DNA of 29,026 nucleotides, taken from the IMG/VR virus record IMGVR_UViG_2671180727_000014, positions 1-29,026 of that record, one strand, 5' to 3'. The notes below the pieces were generated by a model. The model made no database searches, was not told where the DNA came from, and worked only from the letters and a program-made list of their open reading frames with translations. The first letter of the stretch is position 1; each line of letters begins with the position of its first letter. Shown in pieces: positions 3,797 through 29,026 of the stretch. The DNA is from a virus. Taxonomy: Duplodnaviria > Heunggongvirae > Uroviricota > Caudoviricetes. A program made the translations under genes and the position numbers.

Positions 3797-5032
3797 TTAA
3801 CCAAATATTTTTTGAACAACTTCACGAGCCGCTTGTGCAGAAGCTGAAGGGAGTTTGTTAATGAAAGAACGCTCAATACCTGTCACAAAGTCGCCTCGCA
3901 TCATTCCAATCTTGGCCGACAACAAAAGTTCACGAGGGCCAATTGGCTGACTGATAAGGTGTTCTTCGTATCCATCGCGAACGATACCGGCAAACTTAAC
4001 CATCTTTTCTGCGTATTCATCCACGATACCGGCATTTATCAACATGTTGATCTCTGCCTCTTTGCTCATGTATTTCACATTCGAAACGATGCCAAAACGT
4101 GAAAAGTTCGCGGCGTTCTGGATGTTTGTACCCTGGTACAAGCCGGTTTCATCACCAGAACCGTTTGTGTTGCCAGTGCCAATGAAAGCAAACCGTTCAT
4201 GCGGAGTAATGCGACGCCATTCTGGAGTTGCCTCTTTGATGACCAACGCCTCACCTTCCAGCACTGGCTGATACACGCCAAGAATTTGTGGAAACGCAAA
4301 GTCGTATTCATCCGCGAGGTAAACCCAGCCATGCTTCATTGCGAGCGCAAGCAAGCCAGGCTCGAAATACGTAGAGCCATCACGCGCCAGAATTTGCCCC
4401 GTAACATGTGCCTCTTCCATTGATGCTGTATGTTGGGCACGGATCAACGGACGATTGAGCAAAGCACATAGCTGTGTAGGCAATGACGATTTGCCTGTTC
4501 CTGCATGACCCCACAAATAGCCAGGTATGCCAAGTTCAAGCATCATGAAAATATCTTTGATCAGTTCGAAGTCGCCATATACGTAGCCCTTCTTCACTTC
4601 TGGAACGAACTCTGGATACGGCGTATTGACGTTGACGCTAACCATGAGCGGCGTCCCACGTTTTGTTCCGAGTTCTTCCACCGTTACGTTTAGCAGTTCG
4701 TGAGCTGCGACCAGATCTGTCTTGTACTCAACTGTGCCTGTGTAGCCTGGGCTACTGGTCAAGCCAGAAGATTTCGCCATTTCGCTTTTTTGCTCGGCAC
4801 GTTTAGCTTGAATTGCATCAAGTGCCTTTTTCGATAGCGTTGGTTCATCTGGAAACTGCGTTGTGTACATTTTCAGTACGGTGTCAGGATCGGCATCTTT
4901 TACTGACTCAGGAATGCCCTCGCAATTACCATTGGCTACATGGGACTTAAAATAGTGAAATGATTTGCCGCACCACTTGCAAACAAGGTAATCAGAAGGA
5001 TTTTTATCATTTTGCAGTGCAGTAGTAGTCAT
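3797..5032 (-). CDS. AAA+ ATPase of the MoxR/CobS-like class, 411 aa
   Basis: Walker A GHAGTGKSS and Walker B-like VYLADEYD; N-terminal Cys cluster (CKWCGKSFHYF...GNC); sits immediately downstream of a vWA protein on the same strand. Confidence 0.8.
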   Translation of the reverse strand: MTTTALQNDKNPSDYLVCKWCGKSFHYFKSHVANGNCEGIPESVKDADPDTVLKMYTTQFPDEPTLSKKALDAIQAKRAEQKSEMAKSSGLTSSPGYTGTVEYKTDLVAAHELLNVTVEELGTKRGTPLMVSVNVNTPYPEFVPEVKKGYVYGDFELIKDIFMMLELGIPGYLWGHAGTGKSSLPTQLCALLNRPLIRAQHTASMEEAHVTGQILARDGSTYFEPGLLALAMKHGWVYLADEYDFAFPQILGVYQPVLEGEALVIKEATPEWRRITPHERFAFIGTGNTNGSGDETGLYQGTNIQNAANFSRFGIVSNVKYMSKEAEINMLINAGIVDEYAEKMVKFAGIVRDGYEEHLISQPIGPRELLLSAKIGMMRGDFVTGIERSFINKLPSASAQAAREVVQKIFG

Positions 5033-5093
5033 GCGCTTTTCCTTTGTTCTCTAATGAGCGTTCAAGTTCTTATATAAATATACCATTAACTAT

Positions 5094-5111
5094 GGTAAGT
5101 AGTTACTTATC
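5094..5111. promoter_or_regulatory. palindrome-family site GGTAAGTAGTTACTTATC upstream of the AAA+ ATPase gene
   Basis: TAAGTA-GT-TACTTA inverted repeat, about 60 nt upstream of the ATG at 5032. Confidence 0.35.
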
Positions 5112-5127
5112 ATTAAGGCTGTTTTAA

Positions 5128-7236
5128 TTACTTCAAAATGATACGAGATAGTTCAGTAACTACAGATGAACCAAGACTATCAACACTAGTTACCAGGGCA
5201 TGATTTGCGTAAAATCTCTCCGGTGCATCAGTCATGATGCCAATTGCCATCAAATCAATGTCAGTCTGCGTTTCAATTTGCTTCGTAACCGAACGCAAAT
5301 GGGCGTCAAAACCTCTCCCAACAGCCCACGGCGCGCCATCGCTCAGAACAAGCATGATCTTCCTGTCCTCCAAGCGACCGGAAAATAACGATGCAAGGCT
5401 GGCTATGCTTTCACCATCCACGTTATTAAGAAGTGGGAATGTGTAGCCTACGCACCCCATACGTGAGCGAACTTCGCGAGAATTTGCTTTTTCATTCCAA
5501 TTTTTGATGATAGGTAGCATTAAAGATTCAAAGCGAGAGAACTCATATTTGATAGCCTTAAGTTCTCCTGCTGCCATATGACTGCCAAATGTAGTGAAGC
5601 CGGTGATAATGTTGGGAACATTTATTCGATCAAGTGCATCGGCGATGGTATATGCACTTGCAAGAGCTAGTTTTATCGTTTCGCCACTCATTGAACCCGA
5701 TAAATCAATCACTTGTTGAACACAGGCGTTAACGGCTTTAGATTCTTCTTTTTTACGAAACACGCGATCATCATTCATTGTTAATCTGTAGATACTTGAA
5801 CCATGAATGCGCCCCCGACGCTGGCCAGGTATAAACTGAACTCTGTTTCTGCTTGCTATTGCACGTTCCAGGTCTTTTGCCAGCGTCGACGAAACACCTG
5901 ACGAAAGGTGCTTTTCAATATATTTGTCGAAGAGTTGGTTGCCTTCAGGAACGATGCGATAACGGCTGATTGGATATCCACCTAAATCAATATCGGAGAA
6001 TGTTTTAATAAGCCGTTTGATATGGGCTTCTGCCTGATCAATCGAGCCGATGAAGTCGTATGAGCGATTGTATGGCCTGTATTCGCTTTTCGAGCTTTCT
6101 GTTAACTCGCTTTTAATCGTTTCGGATAGCGCATCTTCTGTCATGCCTCCGACTTCATCTTCCATGCTATCCAACTCCTCTAAAGCCTCTTCCAGACTCA
6201 TTTTTGACGGAGTTGGAATGTCTGAAGAGCCGTCTTCTGTCGTTTTTCTTTTTTCGTGGTCAGCGGTTAATGATTCTGACGCCGCGTTATCAGAAGCATC
6301 AGAATCTGATACCGCTTTATCATTTTCTGTATCATCGAATATTGTTTCTGATGATTCAGGATTATCTGAATCATCACTGTCGTTATTATCATGTTTGTGC
6401 TTACTATGTGACTCTGATTTAATAGATTTGTGATTATCTAACGATGAGGGTGTCTCATGATCTTCGTTGTCTTCATTGTTTTCTCCAGAGGCATCCGTCT
6501 GGTCAGCGTCTGAAGGATCGGAAGTTTTTCCCGGAGCTGACTCCTTACCTTTGCTTTCACTTTCAGTGTCTTTGAGGATCTTAGCTATGGTCGCAGCCAC
6601 CTTTACACAATCCTCGGTGCAAGACATGTTACGCACGGCCACATCGATACCATGTTCTTTTAATAATGAAATTGGTTTCTCAATGACAGGCCAATATTCA
6701 TCCATGAAATCTACGAACGGTGCTTGGCCATCCCAGGCTCTTACAACCGGACAGAGAAAGAAGTTTAGAAAAAGCGCGCGCTGATCTTTGCCACAATAAG
6801 CAATAGCCTCTGAAGCCTTTGGTTTAAAGACTTTTTCGATTATAAGGCGCTGAGTTGCCATCAGATTACGTCTTGTTCCGTTAAAGACCTGACCCATTTT
6901 TCGCTCGATGAACACGTCTTCTAAGGCATTCCATAGCGACCAGGAAGGAACGCGTCCTTTTTCTCTCATTTTGTTGGACACACGAATATCGGTAAACAAA
7001 ATGTGAGCAACCTCATGATCGAGAAATCCGCGCACAGCATTCATCAATGCCGGTGTTGCGTTATCCGGGATTGATGGGATGTTTACGAGAATTGGCTCTC
7101 CATCATCGTTATAGCGTACATAAGCGTCGTCCCCTCGTTCTGCAACAGGGATGTTTTTACCTGAAAGGAGAGCGACTACTCGTTTTACACTGTCACGGAA
7201 GTCCTGAACCTCTTTGATGGAACGTTTTTTAGACAT
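5128..7236 (-). CDS. von Willebrand factor A (vWA) domain protein, CobT-like partner of the AAA+ ATPase, 702 aa
   Basis: C-terminal vWA/MIDAS motif VIDLSGSMSG (DxSxS); central ~130 aa acidic Ser/Asp/Glu-rich low-complexity linker (DSDDSDNPESSETIFDDTEND...). Confidence 0.8.
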   Translation of the reverse strand: MSKKRSIKEVQDFRDSVKRVVALLSGKNIPVAERGDDAYVRYNDDGEPILVNIPSIPDNATPALMNAVRGFLDHEVAHILFTDIRVSNKMREKGRVPSWSLWNALEDVFIERKMGQVFNGTRRNLMATQRLIIEKVFKPKASEAIAYCGKDQRALFLNFFLCPVVRAWDGQAPFVDFMDEYWPVIEKPISLLKEHGIDVAVRNMSCTEDCVKVAATIAKILKDTESESKGKESAPGKTSDPSDADQTDASGENNEDNEDHETPSSLDNHKSIKSESHSKHKHDNNDSDDSDNPESSETIFDDTENDKAVSDSDASDNAASESLTADHEKRKTTEDGSSDIPTPSKMSLEEALEELDSMEDEVGGMTEDALSETIKSELTESSKSEYRPYNRSYDFIGSIDQAEAHIKRLIKTFSDIDLGGYPISRYRIVPEGNQLFDKYIEKHLSSGVSSTLAKDLERAIASRNRVQFIPGQRRGRIHGSSIYRLTMNDDRVFRKKEESKAVNACVQQVIDLSGSMSGETIKLALASAYTIADALDRINVPNIITGFTTFGSHMAAGELKAIKYEFSRFESLMLPIIKNWNEKANSREVRSRMGCVGYTFPLLNNVDGESIASLASLFSGRLEDRKIMLVLSDGAPWAVGRGFDAHLRSVTKQIETQTDIDLMAIGIMTDAPERFYANHALVTSVDSLGSSVVTELSRIILK

Positions 7237-11966: not shown

Positions 11967-12042
11967 TGGTGCCGGTTAGCGGACTCGAACCGCTGACATC
12001 CTGCTTACAAGGCAGGCGCTCTACCAACTGAGCTAAACCGGC
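11967..12042 (-). tRNA. tRNA-Thr (anticodon UGU), CCA encoded
   Basis: Reverse complement GCCGGTTTAGCTCAGTTGGTAGAGCGCCTGCCTTGTAAGCAGGATGTCAGCGGTTCGAGTCCGCTAACCGGCACCA: perfect 7-bp acceptor stem, anticodon loop CTTGTAA, T-loop GGTTCGAGTCC. Confidence 0.85.
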
Positions 12043-12046
12043 AATT

Positions 12047-12133
12047 TGGTGGGGAGTGATGGAGTCGAACCACCCGAGTCGCAATGACAGTAGATTTACA
12101 GTCTACCCCGCTGCCCCTACGGACTAACTCCCC
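12047..12133 (-). tRNA. tRNA-Tyr (anticodon GUA), long variable arm, CCA encoded
   Basis: Reverse complement GGGGAGT...GTAGA-CTGTAAA-TCTAC...GGTGG-TTCGACT-CCATC-ACTCCCC-A-CCA. Confidence 0.8.
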
Positions 12134-12138
12134 TAAAT

Positions 12139-12213
12139 TGGCGATGGTGGGTGGATTCGAACCACCGACCAGTTGGTTAACAGCCAACTGCTCTACCGCT
12201 GAGCTACACCATC
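12139..12213 (-). tRNA. tRNA-Asn (anticodon GUU), CCA encoded
   Basis: Reverse complement GATGGTGTAGCTCAGCGGTAGAGCAGTTGGCTGTTAACCAACTGGTCGGTGGTTCGAATCCACCCACCATCGCCA: 7-bp acceptor stem, anticodon loop CTGTTAA. Confidence 0.85.
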
Positions 12214-20840: not shown

Positions 20841-21198
20841 AACCTTTCTTCATCAACTCTCGTTTGATTTCATCGGTACGCATCGTGACATCGGCAGCGG
20901 TGATCGCCTCGTTAAGTTTCACGATGTCCTCGATTTCCTGCGGTGTCTTCTCCGCAAGATGGAAAATAGCAGCACGAATCACGTCAGAACGAGTGAACTT
21001 CTCGAAGCGAGGGATGAACTTCATCATCTCCAGCAGTTCGAAGTATTCGTCCTCCAGTGACATTGTGCGGCTTTTAATTTTCTCTTTGCCACGAGTCGGG
21101 CGTCCCTGTGGTCTGACTGGTTGGCGCAAAGGAGTTGTGTTCTTAGCCGGTGCATCAGGCTCTTTGCGCTTTGCTAGGTCACCCATTTTCATGGACAT
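20839..21198 (-). CDS. small partition partner protein (ParG/ParB-like, possible ribbon-helix-helix), 119 aa
   Basis: Immediately downstream of parA and overlapping it by 1 nt; basic Pro/Arg-rich N-terminal tail followed by a compact domain (SRTMSLEDEYFELL...RSDVIRAAIFHLAE). Confidence 0.45.
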   Translation of the reverse strand: MSMKMGDLAKRKEPDAPAKNTTPLRQPVRPQGRPTRGKEKIKSRTMSLEDEYFELLEMMKFIPRFEKFTRSDVIRAAIFHLAEKTPQEIEDIVKLNEAITAADVTMRTDEIKRELMKKG

Positions 21199-21866
21199 TA
21201 TTCTTTTTCCTCCAGACTCAACAGATAATCTACAAATTCTTCAAACTCGGCTTCCGCCTTTTTGTCGCGCTCGCTACCGGTCATTTCAAAGATAGAACGA
21301 CCAGACTCTTCCGCATCATCATAGACGTTGCGGTTATATAGATTGACTGGCGCAGACTCGATGCCAAACGTCTCAACAATCTCTTTAGCCGCCAGAATGC
21401 GAGACACTTGTGATGGCAAAGCCGGACACTGGTTCATGACCGCGCGGACCTTCACTTTATCGTTTACATTACGAACATTGTCGATAATAGGATCGATATC
21501 ACGCAGAGATTTCAAATCACGACGCTTAGGACGAAGCGGGATAATGATAACGTCGGCCATCAGCATCGCTTGTCGCTGAATTTCGGAGTCGAAGCCACCA
21601 GCATCTACCACTACAAACTCAGCTCTACCCTGAAGCGATTTTAGGTGCTTAATGATGTCATCCTGAACGTATGCAAAAGGAATCAGCTCAAGGTCTTCGT
21701 TCTGTCGACGGTCTTCACACCAGCTCGTTGTCGTGCGCTGAATATCTATATCGGTAATATAAACCTTCTTCTTCTTTTTGACTTTCAGGCAAACGGCAAT
21801 TTGCTGGGCAACGGTGGATTTGCCAGGCCCGCCCTTTGTGCCGCCAACCACAAAGATCTTGGTCAT
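21198..21866 (-). CDS. parA: ParA/Soj-family partition ATPase, 222 aa
   Basis: Deviant Walker A KGGPGKST (IFVVGGTKGGPGKSTVA) and Walker B VVVDAGG. Confidence 0.85.
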   Translation of the reverse strand: MTKIFVVGGTKGGPGKSTVAQQIAVCLKVKKKKKVYITDIDIQRTTTSWCEDRRQNEDLELIPFAYVQDDIIKHLKSLQGRAEFVVVDAGGFDSEIQRQAMLMADVIIIPLRPKRRDLKSLRDIDPIIDNVRNVNDKVKVRAVMNQCPALPSQVSRILAAKEIVETFGIESAPVNLYNRNVYDDAEESGRSIFEMTGSERDKKAEAEFEEFVDYLLSLEEKE

Positions 21867-22184
21867 TGGAGAGTTCCCTTTGCGTATATAATTATCGTCT
21901 GAAACAACTTGTTTTCTTATATGTGATATAGCCTAAATGCCTACGGCTGCGGTGTAAAGGTTAAATGGTAGGTTGTGATTAACAATTGGCAATCATAGCT
22001 TGTATTTGTCTGTTGAAAAAAGTAACAATGACCTCTATATTACAAGTACGGTGATATGCCGTACACAATTTGATAATGCACACGTAATGGGCTATAGCCT
22101 TTTAAAGTAATTTTTGAGTCGAAAACTCAGTTTGAACAGAGGAGATTGATGGCCTTCCTACATCACGGCCATCAGGAGGAATAC

Positions 22185-22454
22185 ATGTCAGCACTAAAAA
22201 AGCAGCGCATCGATTTGAGATTAACCGATGACGATAAAAGCATCATCGAGGAAGCTGCCGCAATGTCTAACCAGAGCATTACTCAGTTTATGGTTAGCAG
22301 TGCATCTGAACGTGCCGTGAAAGTTATAGAGCAACACCGTAGACTAGTTCTGAATGAAGAATCCTGGAATCTGGTTATGGACGCTATAAGCAATCCTCCG
22401 GCACCGAACGACAAGCTGAAACGAGCTGCTGATCGTCTGAAAAGCATGGAGTAG
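22185..22454 (+). CDS. DUF1778-type ribbon-helix-helix antitoxin (TacA/AtaR-like), about 90 aa
   Basis: RIDLRLTDDDKSIIEEAAA...SITQFMVSSASERA and the NPPAPNDKL motif typical of antitoxins paired with GNAT toxins; AGGAGG ribosome-binding site before the ATG at 22185 (ORF track starts at 22146). Confidence 0.75.
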   Translation: MSALKKQRIDLRLTDDDKSIIEEAAAMSNQSITQFMVSSASERAVKVIEQHRRLVLNEESWNLVMDAISNPPAPNDKLKRAADRLKSME

Positions 22455-22461
22455 TTTACTC

Positions 22462-22983
22462 GTGAGCAATACAACGATAGAGATTTTCTCTGGAGAGAAA
22501 GATTATGATCTAAACGGTTTTGATTGCGGCGAAGAGTCACTAAACGCCTTTTTAGCCAACCACTTAAAAAGGCAGCATGAGGGAAAAATTCTTCGTGCTT
22601 ATGTGCTTTGCACTCAAGAAGAAAGGCCAAAAGTGTTAGGATATTACACTTTGTCAGGTAGTTGTTTTGAAAAGGAGTCCTTACCTTCAAGAAGCAAACA
22701 AAAGAAGGTTCCTTATCGGAATGTTCCAAGTGTTACTTTGGGTAGGCTGGCTTTGGACAAGTCCCTTCAAGGTCAAGGATTTGGCTCAATGCTTGTAACA
22801 CATGCAATGCGCGTTGTGTACAATGCATCTCTTGCTGTAGGCATTCATGGACTTTTCGTTGAGGCGTTAAATGACAAAGCCAAGGCGTTTTATAAAAGTT
22901 TAGGCTTTATCCAGCTGGTTGGTAACAACGAGCGTTCTTTGTTCTATCCTACAAAATCTATCGAAAAATTGTTCGAAGAATAA
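22462..22983 (+). CDS. GNAT-family acetyltransferase toxin (TacT/AtaT-like), 173 aa
   Basis: GNAT fold motifs (RLALDKSLQGQGFGSMLV...), start 8 nt after the antitoxin stop; classical antitoxin-then-toxin order. Confidence 0.75.
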   Translation: MSNTTIEIFSGEKDYDLNGFDCGEESLNAFLANHLKRQHEGKILRAYVLCTQEERPKVLGYYTLSGSCFEKESLPSRSKQKKVPYRNVPSVTLGRLALDKSLQGQGFGSMLVTHAMRVVYNASLAVGIHGLFVEALNDKAKAFYKSLGFIQLVGNNERSLFYPTKSIEKLFEE

Positions 22984-23015: not shown

Positions 23016-23231
23016 TCACCAACCACAAACCCTCTCTCCCATCGTATTGTGAAAAAGGATTTGGCGTTCGGTTTCTTCAGTCATTACATCATTATTGCTG
23101 ATATAGATAGGCTCAGCCCCATCGCAGAACAACACGCTGGCTGTTTGTGGTTTAATGACGCACCCACTTATCATACAACTCACGATGAACGGCAGAAGCA
23201 TCTTTCTGACGTATTTTACTGCTCGTCTCAT
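23016..23231 (-). CDS. putative o-spanin (outer-membrane lipoprotein), overlapping the 3' end of the i-spanin gene out of frame
   Basis: Signal peptide with lipobox MLLPFIVSCMISGC; start embedded in the upstream gene as in Rz/Rz1-type overlapped spanins. Confidence 0.4.
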   Translation of the reverse strand: MRRAVKYVRKMLLPFIVSCMISGCVIKPQTASVLFCDGAEPIYISNNDVMTEETERQILFHNTMGERVCGW

Positions 23232-23403
23232 TCACCACTTTCACTGTGTTTTGAAGTCGTTTTCTGTCTTCCTGTTTTGCCTTCTCTTCCATTGCTCGTC
23301 GCGCCGCATTCCCGCCCATCGTGTAAGCGCCGACAAGAACGAAAAGAACGGCAGCCAGCGTAATCAAAGCAACTTTTAGCTTTGTCATCAGGCTGCCTAG
23401 CAT
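23152..23403 (-). CDS. putative i-spanin (N-terminal transmembrane helix, charged periplasmic region), 83 aa
   Basis: LKVALITLAAVLFVLVGAY followed by a charged helical segment (RRAMEEKAKQEDRKRLQ). Confidence 0.45.
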   Translation of the reverse strand: MLGSLMTKLKVALITLAAVLFVLVGAYTMGGNAARRAMEEKAKQEDRKRLQNTVKVVNETSSKIRQKDASAVHRELYDKWVRH

Positions 23404-23404
23404 A

Positions 23405-24124
23405 TTAGACCATCCCTTTCTGGTGTTTTCTTACCTGCGACCAGGCAATGAATCCTGCCACAACAATAGTGGCAATACCGAAGATGATGCGTACTGTATC
23501 CCCGCTAGAGATATGACCTTGTGCTTTATCCATAGCAGCGGAAACCTGCGGCATAACATCGGCCAGCTGCGCCAGACCAATACCTGCTGTAACAGTTGCG
23601 CCTGCGGTTTCTTTAGTTACAGGAACAGCCTTCACGGTTTTCACCGGCTTAACAACGCCAGCTCGACGCAGACCTTCCTCAATAACTTCTGCCGCATACC
23701 AGGTGTTCAGCGTTTTTAGCGGGCCTCGGCCATTCTCGTGGCGAATGATTGCCTCAACCAAAGGTCGAAGGATGTCGTAATCATGCAGATCGATGATCAT
23801 GTCTGCGGTTACACCAACGGCTTTAGACACCTCATTAATGTAGGCGTCAGTATTGTTTTCATTCGGCGGTGCCCAGCGTTCAATAACTTCACGAATGGTA
23901 TCGATACTTGTGCCGTCTTTTGCGCGACGTTTATCGTGGTAGGTAATTAGAGTCACCGCCAGCGCACGAATCCCCCAAACAGGGTCTTTAAACGTGCAAA
24001 AGCGCGGTTCGGCAGGGTTGTCGATTAGCCCCTGCCACGGCGAACCTTTGTCGAGGTTGCCAGGGTTGTTATTACGAATGCCTCTCGGAGTTTTCATCCT
24101 TGATCTCCTGTTATTGCAGTCCAT
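23405..24124 (-). CDS. candidate cell-wall hydrolase (endolysin-position protein) with a C-terminal transmembrane anchor, 239 aa
   Basis: Conserved-looking motifs GIRNNNPGNL...WQG and RWAPPNENNTDAYI; C-terminal hydrophobic helix IIFGIATIVVAGFIAW; located between a holin-like gene and the spanins. Enzymatic class not established. Confidence 0.4.
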   Translation of the reverse strand: MDCNNRRSRMKTPRGIRNNNPGNLDKGSPWQGLIDNPAEPRFCTFKDPVWGIRALAVTLITYHDKRRAKDGTSIDTIREVIERWAPPNENNTDAYINEVSKAVGVTADMIIDLHDYDILRPLVEAIIRHENGRGPLKTLNTWYAAEVIEEGLRRAGVVKPVKTVKAVPVTKETAGATVTAGIGLAQLADVMPQVSAAMDKAQGHISSGDTVRIIFGIATIVVAGFIAWSQVRKHQKGMV

Positions 24125-24446
24125 TCTTCACGCCATAAGCGGCCAGACCCAGCAGCAGCGCGGTAATCAGGAACGACGTTATCTTTGAGATAATGCCGCC
24201 AAAGAACCCGCTGGAGATGGCGTCTAGCCGATTAAGTAGTTTGTCCAGGTTGGAGTGCTGAATGCTGTGTTGCGAAGGCGTCATATCGCCAAAGTAGGCT
24301 TTGAGCTGGTCGTTGACCTCCTGGCCAATTTCCTCACGCAACTCCTTACCTAATTTGCCGACAACTTCACGCGCAACGATAGCGGCAATGCGCTCTACCT
24401 GCTCTGGCGTTACGCCTGCCATCTCGTTCGACATTATTTCCTCCAT
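24111..24446 (-). CDS. holin-position membrane protein (single C-terminal transmembrane helix), 111 aa
   Basis: C-terminal helix ITSFLITALLLGLAAYGV; first gene of the lysis cluster; GGAGG ribosome-binding site upstream of the ATG. Confidence 0.35.
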   Translation of the reverse strand: MEEIMSNEMAGVTPEQVERIAAIVAREVVGKLGKELREEIGQEVNDQLKAYFGDMTPSQHSIQHSNLDKLLNRLDAISSGFFGGIISKITSFLITALLLGLAAYGVKNGLQ

Positions 24447-24495
24447 GAATCGTCAAATCGGGATGGCGGTTTTATATCATAAAACGCCCACACTT

Positions 24496-24512
24496 GGTAG
24501 GTAAGTACTTAC
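24496..24512. promoter_or_regulatory. perfect 12-bp palindrome GTAAGTACTTAC (with flanking GGTAG) upstream of the lysis cluster; a candidate -10 TATGAT lies downstream on the minus strand
   Basis: Read directly, about 55 nt upstream of the holin-like ATG. Confidence 0.4.
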
Positions 24513-25348
24513 ACATGAGCGCCGTAAATTGCCCCAACTTTAGTCCAAGTTGGAGCATTACCAGTAACAGCTTTACCAGCTGCTCCGCCGTTATATTCTG
24601 TACCGTTACCTTGAGTATTACATCTTCCTCCAGCAGCACCGACATTACCACCCGAACCGCCTGTATATGCACTAAGAGACCCCTCACCAACAGATCCTTT
24701 ACCAGGAGCGGAAATAGTACCAGCAGTTGCACCGGAACTCATATGAGAGGAAGACCCACCAGCACCGAATGGGCAACCACCGCCACCACCAAATATTAGT
24801 TTACCCCTGTTACCGCCGCCACCGCCGCCACCACCTCCAGCGATTGCACCATTATTCGTAATACGCAAGCGTGTACCGATGCCATTATTAATTGCGTTAC
24901 CACCAGCAGCACCGGCAGCGTTACTACCACCATTGCCACCGCGTCCATAGACAGTCACACCTGCGTTGATTACAAGGCTGATATAAGAGTTGGTAAGTGA
25001 ACTCGGGAAATCTAAACATGGCACGCCGCTACTGGACGACACCAGATCCCCTGTAATGGTAACAACGACTGGCGTCGCCCCCTGGGATTTTAAATAGTTG
25101 ATCAGTGTGTCTTTGTTGTAGTTATGATTCGCACCGATGCTGTAATGAATTTCCTTAGAACGACCTGCTAACTGAGACATATTCCCAGCAGCAGACAATT
25201 GCACCGCCGTTCGAGCTGCACTCATCCATCTCTGGCCTGTCACACTGACAGCCGAAGACCCAATCCAACCGGGAACACCGACAATTGGCACATCTAATCT
25301 CCTTTTTGATGTGAATATCCTGAATTGGTGAGGGTGGCCCCTCACCAT
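24509..25348 (-). CDS. glycine-rich protein immediately downstream of the tail fiber gene (possible adhesin or tail fiber accessory protein), up to 279 aa
   Basis: Runs such as GRGGNGGSNAAGAAGGN and GGGGGGGGGNRGKLIFGGGGG. An alternative GTG start at about 25291 is preceded by AAGGAG; the annotated ATG at 25348 lies inside a hairpin. Confidence 0.5.
   Translation of the reverse strand: MVRGHPHQFRIFTSKRRLDVPIVGVPGWIGSSAVSVTGQRWMSAARTAVQLSAAGNMSQLAGRSKEIHYSIGANHNYNKDTLINYLKSQGATPVVVTITGDLVSSSSGVPCLDFPSSLTNSYISLVINAGVTVYGRGGNGGSNAAGAAGGNAINNGIGTRLRITNNGAIAGGGGGGGGGNRGKLIFGGGGGCPFGAGGSSSHMSSGATAGTISAPGKGSVGEGSLSAYTGGSGGNVGAAGGRCNTQGNGTEYNGGAAGKAVTGNAPTWTKVGAIYGAHV
25327..25346 (-). other. hairpin (8-bp stem GGTGAGGG / CCCTCACC, loop TGGC) between the tail fiber stop and the glycine-rich gene
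   Basis: Read directly; no U-tract, so it could be an attenuator or translational control structure. Confidence 0.4.
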
Positions 25349-25357
25349 TCACCTTGA

Positions 25358-28300
25358 TTACATTTTTGCCTTCAGTTCGCGCACTTCCTCGCGCAGCTCT
25401 TTGACAGCCTCGACCAACATGCCGATAACGCCGTTGTAGTTAAGACGCAGACGAGGCTCTCCTGACTGATCGTTATGGTCAACCGTTACCAGTTCAGGCT
25501 GAACATTCTGGACGTCCTGAGCGATGAGGCCGCCAGACTGCTCATACCGGTCACAGACCTGAATCTCGTACAGAACACCTTCGATCCGATCCAGCTTGTC
25601 GAGCGCTCGTTCAATCTTGCGAATATTGCGTTTGCTACGACGGTCAGAGCGGATATAAACGTCATTAAAGCTGCCATTACCGCCACAAACCCAAGTACCA
25701 TCATTCTGGAGGTATGCGTTCGCATCCGTGCCGTTTGCGGTACGTGAGTTGTTGATCATGTAAAAACCAAACTGACTGTTTCCCAAGCCACCCAAGAAGA
25801 ATTTGCGATCCGCGTGGTCTTGTCTCAACAACGCTTGTGCAGAGCTTGTACTTACAGCGTTCCTCCCGAAGATGACGTTCTGGTTACGCATATCTATCCA
25901 CGCGCCAGAGCCGCTGTTGATGGAAAAACGGTTGGCGTAAACCCACGCACTTGACGTGATGTCACCCGTTACACTCAACGGCTTAAGGCTTTGCAGCGTG
26001 CTATTAACGAACCTAAAAACATGGGCGCTATTGGCGTAAACATCCAGAATGCCATCTCCGTTCTGTTTAAAGCCGGTGTCATTGTCACCCAGAACAATGG
26101 AATTACCGCCAAGAGCACTGGATGTACCGATGCCCAGTGCACCATTCAATTGACCTCCAGATAATGATAACGCCCCAACATCAGCAGCAGTCGGTTTAAT
26201 GTGCGAACTGTAAATTACATATACAGTTCCATCTGTCAGGCCTGTTGGTTTATTCGCTGTATAAGTTGGTGATGTATGAATCGTTACGCTGGCGTTACTG
26301 GTATAATCCCACTGGATATTAACACCTGTGGCGTAATTACCTATTTCTACATAAATGTCATAGGTATCACCGGATGTATTCACCCATGCAAAATTAGTAA
26401 ATCCAACCGAGGTCCGTCGCCATAATGCACCAGTAATACCTTTGGGGTTCCCATTTCCTGCACGCAGAACCAGCTCAGAGATGCCTGCTTGCTGCGGGGA
26501 GCCAACGTTAAACCCTGCGCCACCAATCAGGCTTATGTAAACCACGGAACTGGCTTGTGGCATGGTTACAGTTGCCAGCTTGAACCATCCGGCACCACCA
26601 CTAAAAGACATTGTTGCTGAGTTGATCGTGCCTATAGACCTTGGAGTTAGCTCAATGTTTTTAGAACCGTCAAACGACACCCCATTTATAGTTCTAGCGG
26701 TTTGTAACTTGGTCGCTGTCGCTGCATTACCGGTTGTGTTCTGGTTACCAGCAATGTTTACACCCGGCAGGTTGATATTGGCGGAGCCATCGAATGACAC
26801 GCCGCCTATTGTGCGTGCTGTTTGCAGTTTTGTTGCAGTTGCAGCATTACCGTTCAAACTACCATTGATGCCGCCAGTAACATTGAGTCCATTACCGATC
26901 GTAACAGCACCGCTGGTATTATTAATTATAATAGGTCGCAAACCGTTCCATGAACCTAATGTGTCTCCTGATGCTGTTAGCATGAAATATGTGTTCGATC
27001 CATCATTACGGATAAAGAATCCATAGTTGCCATAGGCAATGCGCATACCATTCGCCGATTTTGAAATAATCTCGCCAGCAGCAGTTAATCCGCCAGTTAA
27101 CGCTCCTCCAGAAAGCGGTAATGCTCCTACATCAGAAGCTGTTGGTTTGTTTCTAGTGTTATAAGAACGACGCCAGCCTGGTGCATAATCACTCCCATTG
27201 TACACATAAATAAATTCCGCATTATTAACACCACCATGACCTGATGTTGTTGTCGTTGTAACACGAATAGTGTAGTGGCTTGTTGCCTTATTACTAAACA
27301 CCTCAATCACGGAACCAGATAGATCGATCCTACCGCAACCAGTGTCGTCTATATAATTATTGTTGGCGTAAGCCCATGAGCACCGTGCAATCCAATATTT
27401 GTTTGAAAATGCACCCTGATTATTTAGCCAAGTTATAAATTGAGCAGTCGTAAATGCCGTTCCGTTACCACTATTTAACCATCCATCGGCAGCGGTTGGC
27501 GCGTTTATATCAGCCGGCTGAGGCATAAATCCAGTCGTGTAAACCTGCTCCCAACCACTTTCAAAACCATAACCGTCTCTTGAGGAACGGTAGAACAGAC
27601 CACCATTTTTATAGTGAGCTTTAATTTGAAGCGTACGGCAACTACCTACACCGGTATAAAAGTTGGCAAGAATATAACTGTCGCCTGTTCTATTTACATT
27701 GTAAGCACCAGATTCAGCATTCCACGGCACGCCACCATCAGCATCCGCATATGACCCTGTTGCCCTTCTTGCGAAAGCGGCAACATGCGCAGCGGTTAAA
27801 GTGATATCAGTAGAACCATCAAATGGAACACCGGATATTTTTCTTACCGTCTGAAGTTTTGTAGCAGTTGCAGCATTACCAGTGGTGTTCTGATTACCCG
27901 TAGTGTTTACACCTGGAAGGTTAATATTTGCAGAACCGTCGAAAACAACTCCACCGATAGATCTTGCCGTCTGCAATTTCGTTGCTGTACTTGCATTACC
28001 ATTTAATGTTCCGGTGATACCACCAGTAACAGACAACGGACCTGAAACTGTTCCTCCGGTTGTTGGCAGTGCTCCAATATCTAACGGCGTCGGTTTCTGA
28101 TGTGTGCTATACATCGTATAAACAACACCATCGGTAACGCTGGAAGGCTTACTCGCTGAATATGTTGGCGATGTATAAATAGAAACTGACGCATTTGCAG
28201 TACAATCCCAATGGATATTTACACTCGTCGCATAATTGCCAATTTCAACGTAAATATCATATGTATCGCCGGATGTGTTGATCCAGGCGAAATTCGCTAA

Positions 28301-29026
28301 TCCGACAGCTGTACGCTTCCACAAAGCACCTGTAATTCCTTTGGGGTTTCCATTGCCTGCTCGTAGAACCAGTTCTGAAATGCCTGCCTGATGTGGGGAA
28401 CCGACGTTGTAACCAGCGCCACCAATCAATGCGATGTAAACGATGGAACTCGCTTGTGGCATGGTAACCGTAGCCAGTTTGAACCACCCTGCCCCGCCAG
28501 AGAAAGACATCGTTACTGAATTTAAAGTACCAATATCTTTCGGCGTTAATGTGATATCCGCAGTCAGTGCTTTTCCGTTAACTTTTCGGTTAGATGGCAC
28601 CCTGCTATTCGCATTGTCATTGGCTGCTTTAACTGCCTTCGGTGTCGCGGCAAGCGTTTCAGATGTGCTGTTGGTCGCACTGCTGAGCTGTACTATCCCC
28701 TTTTTCGTCGTACTTGCATCCTCAAGCGCCACGGCGGATGCAATATCCTCTGCCCGTTTAGCTGCTGTCTCGGCGCGCGTTGCCGCGGATTCCGCCGTAC
28801 TTTTGCTCTGAGCTGCCGCCGTCGCACTACCAGCTGCCTCTGTCGCCTTCGTGGATGCCGTCGTGGCGCTGCCTTTCGCTGCTGATGCCTGTCTGGTCGC
28901 CTCATCTTTTGAAGCAGACGCAGATGATGCCGATGACGCTGCCGAACTGGCGGACGATGCGGCTGCCGTTTTTGAGGATTCTGCACGGGTTTCCGACGCT
29001 TTCGCGTTCGTTTCGGATGTCTTCGC
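25358..29026 (-). CDS. long tail fiber protein, 5'-truncated by the window end (at least 1222 aa in window), with C-terminal intramolecular chaperone (peptidase S74-like) domain
   Basis: The frame stays open to position 29026; the ORF-track start at 28732 is an internal GTG. Ala/Ser/Thr-rich N-terminal repeats (AKTSETNAKASETRAESSKTAAAS...), then GIVQLSSATNSTSETLAATPKAVKAAND. Fiber repeats NGNAATATKLQTARTIGGVSFDGSANINLPGVN. C-terminal chaperone-like DRRSKRNIRKIERALDKLDRIEGVLYEI...LREEVRELKAKM. Confidence 0.85.
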   Translation of the reverse strand, partial: AKTSETNAKASETRAESSKTAAASSASSAASSASSASASKDEATRQASAAKGSATTASTKATEAAGSATAAAQSKSTAESAATRAETAAKRAEDIASAVALEDASTTKKGIVQLSSATNSTSETLAATPKAVKAANDNANSRVPSNRKVNGKALTADITLTPKDIGTLNSVTMSFSGGAGWFKLATVTMPQASSIVYIALIGGAGYNVGSPHQAGISELVLRAGNGNPKGITGALWKRTAVGLANFAWINTSGDTYDIYVEIGNYATSVNIHWDCTANASVSIYTSPTYSASKPSSVTDGVVYTMYSTHQKPTPLDIGALPTTGGTVSGPLSVTGGITGTLNGNASTATKLQTARSIGGVVFDGSANINLPGVNTTGNQNTTGNAATATKLQTVRKISGVPFDGSTDITLTAAHVAAFARRATGSYADADGGVPWNAESGAYNVNRTGDSYILANFYTGVGSCRTLQIKAHYKNGGLFYRSSRDGYGFESGWEQVYTTGFMPQPADINAPTAADGWLNSGNGTAFTTAQFITWLNNQGAFSNKYWIARCSWAYANNNYIDDTGCGRIDLSGSVIEVFSNKATSHYTIRVTTTTTSGHGGVNNAEFIYVYNGSDYAPGWRRSYNTRNKPTASDVGALPLSGGALTGGLTAAGEIISKSANGMRIAYGNYGFFIRNDGSNTYFMLTASGDTLGSWNGLRPIIINNTSGAVTIGNGLNVTGGINGSLNGNAATATKLQTARTIGGVSFDGSANINLPGVNIAGNQNTTGNAATATKLQTARTINGVSFDGSKNIELTPRSIGTINSATMSFSGGAGWFKLATVTMPQASSVVYISLIGGAGFNVGSPQQAGISELVLRAGNGNPKGITGALWRRTSVGFTNFAWVNTSGDTYDIYVEIGNYATGVNIQWDYTSNASVTIHTSPTYTANKPTGLTDGTVYVIYSSHIKPTAADVGALSLSGGQLNGALGIGTSSALGGNSIVLGDNDTGFKQNGDGILDVYANSAHVFRFVNSTLQSLKPLSVTGDITSSAWVYANRFSINSGSGAWIDMRNQNVIFGRNAVSTSSAQALLRQDHADRKFFLGGLGNSQFGFYMINNSRTANGTDANAYLQNDGTWVCGGNGSFNDVYIRSDRRSKRNIRKIERALDKLDRIEGVLYEIQVCDRYEQSGGLIAQDVQNVQPELVTVDHNDQSGEPRLRLNYNGVIGMLVEAVKELREEVRELKAKM
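26153..26653 (-). repeat. copy B of the duplicated tail fiber module (TPRSIGTINSATMSFSGGAGWFKLATVTMPQASS...TSPTY...ALSLSGG)
   Basis: As for copy A; each copy is adjacent to a pair of ATATKLQT fiber repeats (about 27797-28015 and 26654-26881). Confidence 0.75.
28049..28552 (-). repeat. copy A of a duplicated ~168-aa tail fiber module (TPKDIGTLNSVTMSFSGGAGWFKLATVTMPQASS...TSPTY...ALPTTGG)
   Basis: Aligned by eye to copy B with high amino-acid identity; antisense ORFs in both regions also share peptides, showing nucleotide-level similarity. Confidence 0.75.

Follow-up and report, generated by a model that had tools for sequence, protein, structure and literature searches.

A T2/S16-type gp38 gene as the probable side-tail-fibre tip adhesin of an SSU5-like phage-plasmid

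What is the glycine-rich protein encoded directly downstream of a tail fibre that already carries its own chaperone? In the window, by which we mean the whole 29,026-nt stretch of DNA analysed here, the maximal open reading frame at this locus lies on the minus strand at 24509..25348 (279 codons). The initial annotation had remarked that its product recalls the gp38-type adhesins. We consider it highly probable that the gene encodes a T2/S16-type gp38 and that this protein forms the receptor-binding tip on the side tail fibre of an SSU5-like phage-plasmid, and this judgement includes the capping of the fibre and the acquisition of a receptor-binding cassette described below.

24509..25291, minus strand: gp38-type tail-fibre adhesin gene ("receptor-recognizing protein"), 260 amino acids, GTG start, stop codon at 24509-24511

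The resemblance to gp38 is one of direct, not remote, homology. A Pfam scan matched the full length of GP38 (PF05268; E=6.8e-70, 235.7 bits, profile positions 1-217 of 218) as well as Gp38_N (PF21721; E=5.9e-15, 55.4 bits), both scores lying far above the gathering cut-off of 25 bits that applies to either family. The reading frame also matched PHROG 2056, "tail fiber protein; host specificity" (E=3e-92). A comparison with gp38 adhesins had been proposed in the initial annotation, and it returned the solved gp38 of phage S16 (6F45_D, E=1.4e-46, covering residues 27-277 of the 279-residue ORF), with a gp38 fusion, 9V85_A, as a second PDB match (E=3.8e-36). The gp38 of Bas45 is 86% identical over 260 of 260 amino acids, without gaps.

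Co-expression of gp38 with gp37 serves assembly in S16-type fibres. Several T-even records name the gene's homologue "distal long tail fiber assembly catalyst", and the protein could be read as a T4-type gp38 or a lambda Tfa-like assembly chaperone that is not part of the virion and binds no receptor. We think this very unlikely, since it is the adhesin family PF05268 and the solved S16 adhesin that the protein matches over its full length, all glycine-rich motifs included, and "assembly catalyst" is a legacy T4-based name on T2/T6-type genes (H70). At E<=0.1, Pfam returned GP38 and Gp38_N only and no Tfa-type family, which places the protein outside the T4-type gp38 and Tfa chaperones; the literature describes the T4 gp38 sequence as very different (PMC6851490). 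A T6 C-terminal amber mutant lost adsorption and kept fibre assembly (PMC3157838).

The position of the gene, directly downstream of a distal fibre that ends in an intramolecular chaperone (IMC), is that expected of the gp38 family. This part of the initial annotation is borne out by a Peptidase_S74 domain at the fibre C-terminus.

25358..29026, minus strand: side tail-fibre gene, 5'-truncated at the edge of the window (Pfam Phage_fiber_2, Gp34_trimer, gp37_C and Peptidase_S74)
25361..25648, minus strand: C-terminal intramolecular chaperone, Peptidase_S74, 96 amino acids (PF13884, E=8.6e-11, profile positions 1-58 of 58; aligned to the S16 gp37 IMC, 6F45_A)
25649..25960, minus strand: Mu gpS-like domain of about 100 amino acids, inserted ahead of the mature fibre's tip strand (match to residues 333-445 of Mu tail fibre protein S, 5YVQ_A, E=2.7e-36)
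26015..26119, minus strand: GGNSIVLGDNDTGFKQNGDGILDVYAN segment resembling gp37, with homology to the S16 and T2 distal gp37 beta-prism (6F45_A residues 21-55; Bas45 gp37 residues 1106-1193, 45% identity)

The fibre stop codon occupies 25358-25360, leaving a gap of 66 nt to the gp38 start. The fibre frame is open to base 29026, and residues 376-1394 of an Enterobacter plasmid fibre match 29026..25358 by tblastn. A GTG at 28732, chosen by the ORF finder as the fibre start, was rejected because the frame runs on past it to the edge of the window. At the start of the chaperone domain, the predicted cleavage serine is followed by a lysine five residues on (S-D-R-R-S-K, the S-x4-K spacing of the Ser/Lys dyad) and then by the predicted helical chaperone, so that autocleavage would fall between ...NDVYIR and SDRRSK. 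The window motif, NDVYIR^SDRRSK, has its published counterparts in DVYIR^SDGRLK of the fPS phages and DLNVS^SDRRIKK of S16, and it includes the known cleavage motif DVYIR^SD (PMC7917993). The S16 gp37 tip (6F45_A) aligns with the last 27 or so residues of the mature fibre and with its GDNDTG segment. Every SSU5-like fibre examined has the Mu gpS-like domain, which the gp37 of T2 and Bas45 lacks; a literature search on 5YVQ gave no usable domain-level description of Mu gpS.

The initial annotation thought a separate tip adhesin unusual beside a fibre with its own chaperone. It is not. Bas45 gp37 has Peptidase_S74 (E=2.4e-15) directly upstream of gp38, and the C-terminus of T2 gp37 is the same. 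What defines the T2/S16-type long tail fibres is this very pairing of an S74 chaperone on the fibre with a gp38 cap; S74 autocleavage of their gp37 exposes the gp38 docking site, and the combination of fibre IMC and downstream gp38 is found in the literature as well (PMC7917993, PMC3157838). The gp38 gene here is an ordinary adhesin in a textbook context, already named in databases.

The protein divides into three regions.

25157..25291, minus strand: N-terminal attachment domain, amino acids 1-45, predicted to dock to the fibre tip (Gp38_N match at amino acids 3-42; alignment to S16, T2 and Bas45)
24947..25156, minus strand: N-terminal part of the central beta-helix domain, amino acids 46-115, of the plasmid-lineage backbone (alignment to S16 gp38)
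24542..24946, minus strand: predicted polyglycine (PGII-sandwich) receptor-binding cassette, amino acids 116-250 (motif positions, the alignment pattern of GRM and HVS, and alignment to the S16 PGII domain)

Glycine makes up 23% of the protein overall and 37% of residues 116-245. The poly-Gly runs with short variable segments beside them, noticed at the outset, are there in the sequence: a run of nine (G9) at 24812-24838, a run of five at 24776-24790, and more Gly-rich motifs with non-Gly segments between them, the motifs lying at amino acids 118-131, 152-160 (G9), 168-172, 176-179, 211-222 and 235-239. Because mixed GGN codons encode the G9 run, it is not a simple DNA repeat. Across the alignment, the motifs are kept while the intervening segments differ among plasmids and T-evens, and the motifs align to the PGII helices of S16. 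This is the alternation of glycine-rich motifs and hypervariable segments typical of gp38. In the cassette, comparison with Bas45 gives dN 0.02 and dS 0.16, a dN/dS of about 0.14, and by this measure the Gly-rich region is coding and under selection. Compositional bias is the sole point in favour of a spurious ORF or a low-complexity non-coding stretch, and the chance of that is negligible given the strong full-length protein homology and purifying selection. The initial annotation had allowed that the region might be non-coding in related genomes; instead, the frame is conserved in 87 plasmids and 759 phage records. The Pfam match, the 6F45_D match and purifying selection together refute the non-coding reading.

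The attachment domain departs from S16 in one respect. In S16, gp38 plugs into gp37 through three tryptophans at its N-terminal helix apices (PMC6851490). The window protein has W9 (25265-25267) and W22 (25226-25228), and its third position is Asn37 (25181-25183), leaving incomplete a set of three that is conserved in the family without defining it. The third position is Asn or Ser in the plasmid clade of the window, Trp in T2, Bas45, S16, SSU5 and an E. asburiae plasmid, and Tyr in one T-even (L013). As Gp38_N is still matched above threshold, we treat Asn37 as a variant within the gp38 family and not as an exclusion from it. Loss of the third Trp showed no association with the type of fibre tip: the tips of SSU5 (Trp) and the window (Asn) are essentially identical.

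Loss of this Trp prong, the Mu gpS-like insertion in the fibre and the fact that some SSU5-like elements are non-inducible could together suggest a decaying remnant, an adhesin unable to dock to a foreign fibre tip. This is improbable. Dozens of plasmids from four genera carry the ORF intact, host-matched variation in it is limited to the hypervariable loops, and the cassette dN/dS is low. The same fibre tip occurs with three-Trp adhesins in SSU5, a viable isolated phage, and in the E. asburiae plasmid, and the Tyr in L013 indicates that the third position tolerates change.

The gp38 reading can be set against the named systems. The S16 gp38-gp37 tip (6F45), as far as Dunne et al. 2018 is represented in PMC6851490, has the same three domains (helical attachment, beta-helix and polyglycine-II sandwich), and the S16 gene also lies directly downstream of a fibre with a self-cleaving S74 chaperone. 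Identity to S16 gp38 is only about 45-50%, however, and the hypervariable loops differ. S16 has a third apex Trp where the window has Asn, the window fibre has the extra Mu gpS-like domain before its tip strand, and S16 comes from a virulent Straboviridae myovirus, in contrast to a temperate SSU5-like phage-plasmid. Bas45 (Escherichia phage PaulHMueller, a Tequatrovirus) is closer: its gp38 is likewise 260 amino acids long, with essentially identical receptor loops, and its upstream gp37 has the S74 IMC. Residues 1-113 are only about 65-77% identical between the two, the last 10 codons diverge again, and Bas45 has an ATG start behind a 30-nt leader whereas the window has GTG behind a 66-nt intergenic leader with a different hairpin sequence. 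In the classical T2/T6 model, proteolytic processing of gp37 precedes its capping by a gp38 of about 260 amino acids (Riede, Drexler, Henning; Trojet et al. 2011, PMC3157838), with hypervariable segments between the glycine-rich motifs setting host range and recombination taking place inside the motifs (PMC3157838). T2 and T6 share with the window the gene order fibre, adhesin, holin, although the window holin belongs to another family (111 amino acids, PHROG 5093). The T2 receptor loops differ from those of the window, and the T2 receptor is FadL. SSU5 gp22, a 178-residue "tail fiber adhesin", sits in the same place after a near-identical fibre C-terminus and matches Gp38_N (E=2.5e-20), but it is shorter, with a different C-terminal module and no GP38 polyglycine domain. 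Downstream of it lie genes for outer-membrane, membrane and Cor superinfection-exclusion proteins, none of which is in the window.

Where the cassette came from can be read from its relation to Bas45. Residues of about 115-250 are roughly 97% identical at the nucleotide level (some 13 mismatches in about 400 nt), and residues 121-260 are identical at 96.4% of amino acids and 94.5% of nucleotides. By contrast, synonymous sites in residues 1-113 are saturated relative to Bas45 (pS about 0.79 for amino acids 1-110), whereas amino acids 1-110 differ from an Enterobacter plasmid gp38 at only 3 of 330 nt. Judged by these comparisons, the gene is a mosaic of a plasmid-lineage backbone and a T-even-like cassette. 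Near-identity of the cassette beside a saturated N-terminal part argues for a fairly recent exchange between virulent T-evens and temperate phage-plasmids. The segment, amino acids of about 115-250, was most probably acquired by recombination in conserved flanks, namely glycine-rich motif 1 and the C-terminal GGAAGKAVTGNAPTW region, from a pool also used by virulent T-even phages.

The cassette also suggests a receptor. Bas45 is OmpA-dependent, with complementation (PMC8594841), and gp38 proteins whose C-terminal regions are closely related share a receptor (PMC12032242). From about 96% amino acid identity of its cassette to that of Bas45, the predicted receptor of the window gp38 is OmpA. Five residues differ from Bas45 in amino acids 121-260, R173C among them, and these could alter receptor fine specificity.

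Putting these elements together, the fibre would trimerise with the aid of its own C-terminal Peptidase_S74 chaperone, which would then excise itself between ...NDVYIR and SDRRSK. One gp38 monomer, translated from GTG 25291 behind AAGGAG, would cap the exposed tip of the virion fibre through its N-terminal helical attachment domain, in a probable ratio of three fibre chains to one adhesin. The distal polyglycine-II sandwich would present the hypervariable loops that bind an outer-membrane protein, predicted to be OmpA.

Since the Mu gpS-like domain before the tip strand is missing from T-even gp37, the docking geometry need not equal that of S16. A more elaborate model is a two-module tip, in which the Mu gpS-like domain of the fibre acts beside a gp38 cassette cap that sits on two Trp prongs and draws on a cassette pool shared with T-evens. 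We regard this as possible but rather doubtful as a whole. The cassette exchange it includes is evident from the sequence; altered docking and the use of two receptors are speculation.

The start of the gene and its leader raise a separate issue. The initial annotation saw an ambiguous start and suggested translational control.

25299..25304, minus strand: Shine-Dalgarno AAGGAG, seen in the sequence and kept in related plasmids
25323..25349, minus strand: GC-rich RNA hairpin with the upstream ATG, just past the fibre stop; core GGUGAGGG-GCCA-CCCUCACC at 25327-25346
25289..25313, minus strand: putative weak second stem CACAUC/GAUGUG, pairing the GTG start and leaving the Shine-Dalgarno in the loop (MFE and centroid structures)
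24487..24501, minus strand: weak terminator-like hairpin with T-run, 8 nt past the gp38 stop (consensus scan)

An ATG in a hairpin and a GTG behind AAGGAG are indeed both present, but the choice between them is not ambiguous: GTG is selected by homology, by the way relatives are annotated and by an indel in relatives that breaks the frame. The GTG at 25289-25291 has its Shine-Dalgarno 7 nt upstream. The homologues all begin at this residue, six plasmid ones with GTG and T2 and Bas45 with ATG, and RefSeq relatives carry a CDS of 783 nt with a GTG start. In two 98%-identical relatives (L010 and L020), a 1-nt deletion shifts the upstream ATG out of frame. On these comparisons, translation is assigned to GTG 25291 and not to ATG 25348. 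The originally reported interval of 24509-25348 contains a real ORF but is the maximal one; its first 57 nt are untranslated leader, and the gene itself is 24509..25291.

The upstream ATG is in frame in the window, inside a stable hairpin whose position is conserved, and one could imagine that it is the start, or that the hairpin switches between ATG and GTG to give two isoforms. There is very little likelihood of this. No Shine-Dalgarno precedes ATG 25348, which lies only 9 nt past the fibre stop codon, and the 19-residue extension it would add has a counterpart in no homologue. RefSeq annotates the GTG start, the ATG is out of frame in L010 and L020, and other lineages have the hairpin without an ATG. 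The ATG start was rejected on the homologue starts and the frame shift.

The leader may still have a regulatory role. The ATG (25346-25348) sits in the 5' arm of a stable hairpin, and folding of the 86-nt leader gave an MFE of -26.1 kcal/mol (z = -2.75). The hairpin recurs at the same position with at least six different stem sequences across plasmid and T-even lineages, and three of its eight consensus pairs show compensatory changes. In the second stem, an A-to-G variant (L004 and L006) retains its pair as U-G. The start codon is weak, the hairpin upstream of it is conserved, and a weak stem contains the GTG; these features are no more than suggestive of translational control. The fibre-gp38 leader had no Rfam match at gathering thresholds, where the whole window gave three tRNAs only. 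Consensus scans of 24000-25800 found no promoter-like site, and no T-run that would make the intergenic hairpin terminator-like. The scan gave two terminator-like sites against 1.5 expected from shuffles, which is not significant alone.

Comparison with sequenced plasmids identifies the window as part of an SSU5-like E. coli phage-plasmid. The window matches 670 plasmid records and shares 97.9% identity with CP053388 across 5.7 kb. PGAP names the product "receptor-recognizing protein" in 87 PLSDB plasmids, near-identical ones included; almost all of these gp38-family plasmids are about 106-146 kb and non-mobilizable, and they come from Escherichia, Enterobacter, Citrobacter, Salmonella and Shigella. 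Among 5,426 complete E. coli genomes, 27 carry the same gene, and 34 of 35 matches are plasmid-borne. An NCBIfam scan of gp38 and the fibre C-terminus gave 0 family matches, and the PGAP name does not derive from any NCBIfam model of the release scanned. Recent literature treats gp38 as a receptor-binding protein of Straboviridae (PMC12032242), and in the literature searched for gp38 in phage-plasmids or SSU5 there was no paper discussing plasmid gp38. At least one SSU5-like E. coli phage-plasmid is not inducible by mitomycin C (PMC9600943), so the activity of the element in the window is putative.

SSU5-like phage-plasmids are described as having a poorly understood host range (PMC9600943). 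Near-identity of the cassette to that of an OmpA-dependent T-even phage offers a directly testable receptor prediction for one of them, and the mosaic gene documents the flow of a receptor-binding module between virulent phages and temperate, plasmid-borne ones. If the two-module tip were true, the cassette could tell the host range of these antibiotic-resistance-carrying elements, with OmpA as the receptor here, and two receptors could be used in series, for example the LPS core by the Mu-like domain and a porin by gp38.

On sequence evidence, the glycine-rich gene that follows the side tail-fibre gene is a T2/S16-type gp38 adhesin, identified by direct homology rather than remote resemblance. 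The maximal ORF (24509..25348, minus strand, 279 codons) specifies a product with 23% glycine overall and 37% in residues 116-245. Its glycine-rich segments comprise a G9 run, a G5 run and four more motifs with non-glycine segments between them, the architecture from which the initial annotation proposed a gp38-type adhesin. That proposal is borne out. The product matches Pfam GP38 (PF05268, E=6.8e-70, profile positions 1-217 of 218), Gp38_N (PF21721, E=5.9e-15) and PHROG 2056 'tail fiber protein; host specificity' (E=3e-92). It also matches the S16 adhesin structure 6F45 chain D (E=1.4e-46, residues 27-277 of the 279-aa ORF aligned) and a GFP-gp38 fusion, 9V85 (E=3.8e-36). The remote-homology comparison with gp38 that had been envisaged returned direct homology, through the Pfam and PHROG profiles and 6F45 chain D. 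The nearest phage homologue is gp38 of the Tequatrovirus Bas45 (Escherichia phage PaulHMueller), with 223/260 residues identical and no gaps. Sequence thresholds, the layout of glycine-rich motifs and hypervariable segments, and the pairing with a Peptidase_S74 (S74) fibre all place the protein in the gp38 family; the one conserved feature it lacks is the full tryptophan triad. The gene is already annotated in near-identical records, and the record of Salmonella phage SSU5 names its own counterpart a tail fibre adhesin.

On the minus strand, the 5' to 3' sequence of the leader is TAA-TCAAGGTGA-ATG-GTGAGGGGCCACCCTCACC...AAAAAGGAGATTAGAT-GTG. The start was initially considered ambiguous, and both candidates are indeed present: the ATG at 25348 belongs to the 5' side of a GC-rich stem of 9 bp, and AAGGAG stands 7 nt before a GTG in the same frame at 25291. 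The ambiguity itself did not survive, as three independent lines select the GTG. First, the RefSeq CDS in related records is 783 nt (260 aa). Second, among ten aligned homologues, six from SSU5-like plasmids start with GTG at the identical residue (M-P-I-V-G-V-P-G-W-I-G-S-S), and T2 and Bas45 have an ATG start at the homologous residue (M-A-I-V-G-V-P-G-W). Third, two relatives with 98% identical gp38 (L010 and L020) carry a 1-nt deletion, CCCTCACC-ATTC versus CCCTCACCAATTC, that shifts the upstream ATG out of frame. The ATG start is thus ruled out and the real gene is 24509..25291, so the reported interval opens with 57 nt of untranslated leader. In other lineages a hairpin occupies the place of the upstream ATG, but no ATG is present.

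The fold of the 86-nt leader has an energy of -26.1 kcal/mol (z = -2.75). Every lineage with a gap between the two genes has a GC-rich hairpin right after the fibre stop, and the stem occurs in at least six different sequences:

Window, 25323-25349, minus strand: GGUGAGGG/CCCUCACC
Citrobacter plasmid: UUGGUGGGG/CCCCACCAA
pLAO59: GGAGAGG/CCUCUCC
Compared record L018: CAGUGAGGGG/CCCCUCACUG
T2: AGAGGGC-UUCG-GCCCUCU (UUCG tetraloop)
Compared record L024: AGGGCC-UUCG-GGCCCU

The hairpin also lies upstream of gp38 in L006, L008, L009, L018, L021, L023 and L024. Judged from these sequences, it is conserved in position, not in sequence, across phage-plasmids and T-even phages. In a consensus fold of nine plasmid-lineage leaders, a small sample with an imperfect alignment, eight pairs are kept, three with compensatory changes. 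The window hairpin has no T-run, was not flagged in a terminator scan and matched no Rfam family. The GTG start itself is paired in a weaker stem, CACAUC/GAUGUG, whose loop contains the Shine-Dalgarno sequence. It is tempting to speculate that the weak start codon and the leader structures exert translational control and keep gp38 production lower than that of the fibre protein, of which three times as much is needed.

The gene directly follows a chaperone-bearing fibre, as first described: the fibre stop is at 25358-25360, and the fibre C-terminus matches Peptidase_S74 'chaperone of endosialidase' (E=8.6e-11). This combination with a separate tip adhesin had been thought unusual. However, Bas45 gp37 has a C-terminal Peptidase_S74 domain (E=2.4e-15) with gp38 directly next to it, the T2 gp37 C-terminus is the same, and the pairing is found in the literature, so the reason for surprise fails. 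An S74-chaperone fibre with gp38 is the norm. In T2 and T6, likewise, gp37 is first processed by proteolysis and then receives its gp38 cap (Trojet et al., PMC3157838). Published cleavage sites are DLNVS^SDRRIKK in S16 and DVYIR^SDGRLK in other Tequatroviruses (PMC7917993); the window fibre reads NDVYIR^SDRRSK at the predicted site. Its GGNSIVLGDNDTGFKQNGDG segment aligns to the S16 gp37 tip (6F45 chain A residues 21-55), and the chaperone, together with the ~27 residues that end the mature fibre, aligns to chain A residues 64-191.

The S16 structure divides gp38 into three parts (PMC6851490). At the N-terminus, three helices form an attachment domain, and the tryptophans at their apices insert into pockets at the gp37 trimer base. 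A beta-helix makes up the centre. The distal part is a polyglycine-II sandwich, and receptor binding is proposed to occur at its hypervariable connecting loops. The corresponding parts of the window are:

25157-25291, minus strand: putative attachment domain (aa 1-45), by correspondence to S16 gp38
24947-25156, minus strand: putative central beta-helix (aa 46-115), by correspondence to S16 gp38
24542-24946, minus strand: putative polyglycine-II sandwich (aa 116-250), by correspondence to S16 gp38
25361-25648, minus strand: S74 chaperone (96 aa), fibre C-terminus

By analogy with the family, from which the virion location and stoichiometry of gp38, fibre cleavage and receptor binding are all taken, the fibre would trimerise on its own S74 chaperone, which would then cleave itself off. 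One gp38 would cap the newly formed tip, and its loops would bind an outer-membrane protein.

The fibre frame (25358-29026, minus strand) is open to the last window base, and the alignment with an Enterobacter plasmid fibre, from its aa 376, also extends to 29026, so the window end truncates the fibre gene. The same two observations rule out the GTG at 28732, chosen by an ORF finder, as its start. In pHXH-2 the RefSeq fibre starts at the equivalent internal position, with a small overlapping upstream ORF; this split annotation may reflect a frameshift or mis-annotation. Within the fibre, a stretch of ~250 aa is duplicated at 60% identity (27992-28741 and 26099-26842, minus strand), both copies matching one Bas45 gp37 segment (aa ~794-936), and a further ~110 aa are repeated at 66% identity.

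The window departs from the T-even prototype in several ways. Asn37 (25181-25183) replaces the third apex tryptophan. Across the plasmid clade this position is Asn or Ser; Trp is retained in T2, Bas45, S16, SSU5 and an E. asburiae plasmid, and Tyr occurs in one T-even relative. Every SSU5-like fibre examined has, just before the tip strand, a ~100-aa segment (25649-25960, minus strand) that T2 and Bas45 gp37 lack. This segment aligns with residues 333-445 of Mu tail fibre protein S (5YVQ_A, E=2.7e-36), is flanked by a T-even gp37-like stretch and by the S74 cleavage site, and may be a structural spacer or a second receptor-binding module. Tryptophan loss and the Mu S-like segment are uncorrelated, as the fibre tips of SSU5 (Trp) and the window (Asn) are near-identical; the E. 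asburiae plasmid likewise has the window's fibre tip. The SSU5 adhesin is only 178 aa with a Gp38_N domain alone, and after it come genes for an outer-membrane protein, a membrane protein and Cor superinfection exclusion, whereas the window lacks these and has a holin directly after a full gp38 (compared intervals: SSU5 4212-5899, window 24447-25291). The whole adhesin/exclusion module appears to be exchanged as one unit. The gp38 ORF is intact in dozens of plasmids with variation concentrated in the loops, and the cassette dN/dS is ~0.14. Neither Asn37, the Mu S-like segment nor the SSU5 adhesin difference counts against function.

A lysis cassette (23016-24446, minus strand) lies directly downstream of gp38; in T-even phages the unrelated holin gene t likewise directly follows gene 38. 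Its members are:

Minus strand: holin-like protein, 111 aa, PHROG 5093
Minus strand: endolysin-like protein with a C-terminal membrane segment, 239 aa, PHROG 873
23152-23403, minus strand: Rz-like ORF
23016-23231, minus strand: lipoprotein-like ORF, overlapping the Rz-like ORF

Two opposite patterns of divergence run through gp38. Against Bas45, the synonymous difference proportion is 0.80 in codons 1-45 and 0.79 in codons 46-120, which is saturation, and codons 121-260 have dS 0.16 and dN 0.02 (94.5% nt, 96.4% aa identity). Mismatches per 30-nt bin number 4-17 to codon ~113, 0-4 from ~115 to 250, and 11 in the last bin. Against Enterobacter and Citrobacter plasmid genes the pattern reverses: codons 1-110 are almost identical (3 mismatches to the Enterobacter gene) and the remainder is divergent. 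The window gp38 therefore combines a plasmid-lineage backbone with a receptor-binding cassette that it has in common with a virulent T-even. The cassette junctions, glycine-rich motif 1 and the conserved C-terminal GGAAGKAVTGNAPTW region, fit the long-standing model of recombination within conserved motifs (Trojet et al., PMC3157838). The Enterobacter plasmid cassette (L005/L006) has phage counterparts in Enterobacter CC31 and EnA02 (72-73% nt), and that of pXH988 in IME339 and many Tequatroviruses (84-87% nt). That the closest counterparts are matching-host T-evens suggests repeated exchange, not a single event. Bas45 depends on OmpA, a dependency that was complemented (PMC8594841), and closely related gp38 C-terminal regions recognize the same receptor (PMC12032242). 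The kinship of the cassettes thus makes OmpA the probable receptor of the window gp38.

The window itself is, from its matches, of SSU5-like phage-plasmid origin. The surrounding 5.7 kb shares 97.9% identity with 'Escherichia phage CMS-2020a' (CP053388, 107.6 kb) and matches 670 plasmid records, overwhelmingly non-mobilizable; those examined measure 106-126 kb and carry IncFIB or IncY replicons, and PGAP labels the gene 'receptor-recognizing protein'. SSU5 matches the region partially. Elsewhere in the window, plasmid-maintenance genes are set between phage modules: a DUF1778/GNAT-acetyltransferase pair (22146-22983, plus strand; TacA/TacT-type toxin-antitoxin by relatives' annotation) adjoins a ParA-like ATPase (21198-21866, minus strand). 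Three adjacent tRNA genes lie at 11970-12213, minus strand (Rfam RF00005: 76.5, 39.7 and 75.5 bits).

By tblastn, gp38-family genes occur in 87 PLSDB plasmids (Enterobacter 40, Escherichia 30, Citrobacter 13, Salmonella 3, Shigella 1). The gene is present at ≥95% identity in 27/5,426 complete E. coli genomes, with 34/35 matches plasmid-borne. Matches were also found in 759 phage records, nearly all among the matches listed being 160-180-kb T-even genomes. Recent papers treat gp38 as a Straboviridae protein (PMC12032242), and our literature search found no paper on gp38 in SSU5-like phage-plasmids, an absence that is not proof of novelty. It may be under-appreciated that gp38 is common in SSU5-like phage-plasmids, with a cassette pool shared with the T-even phages.
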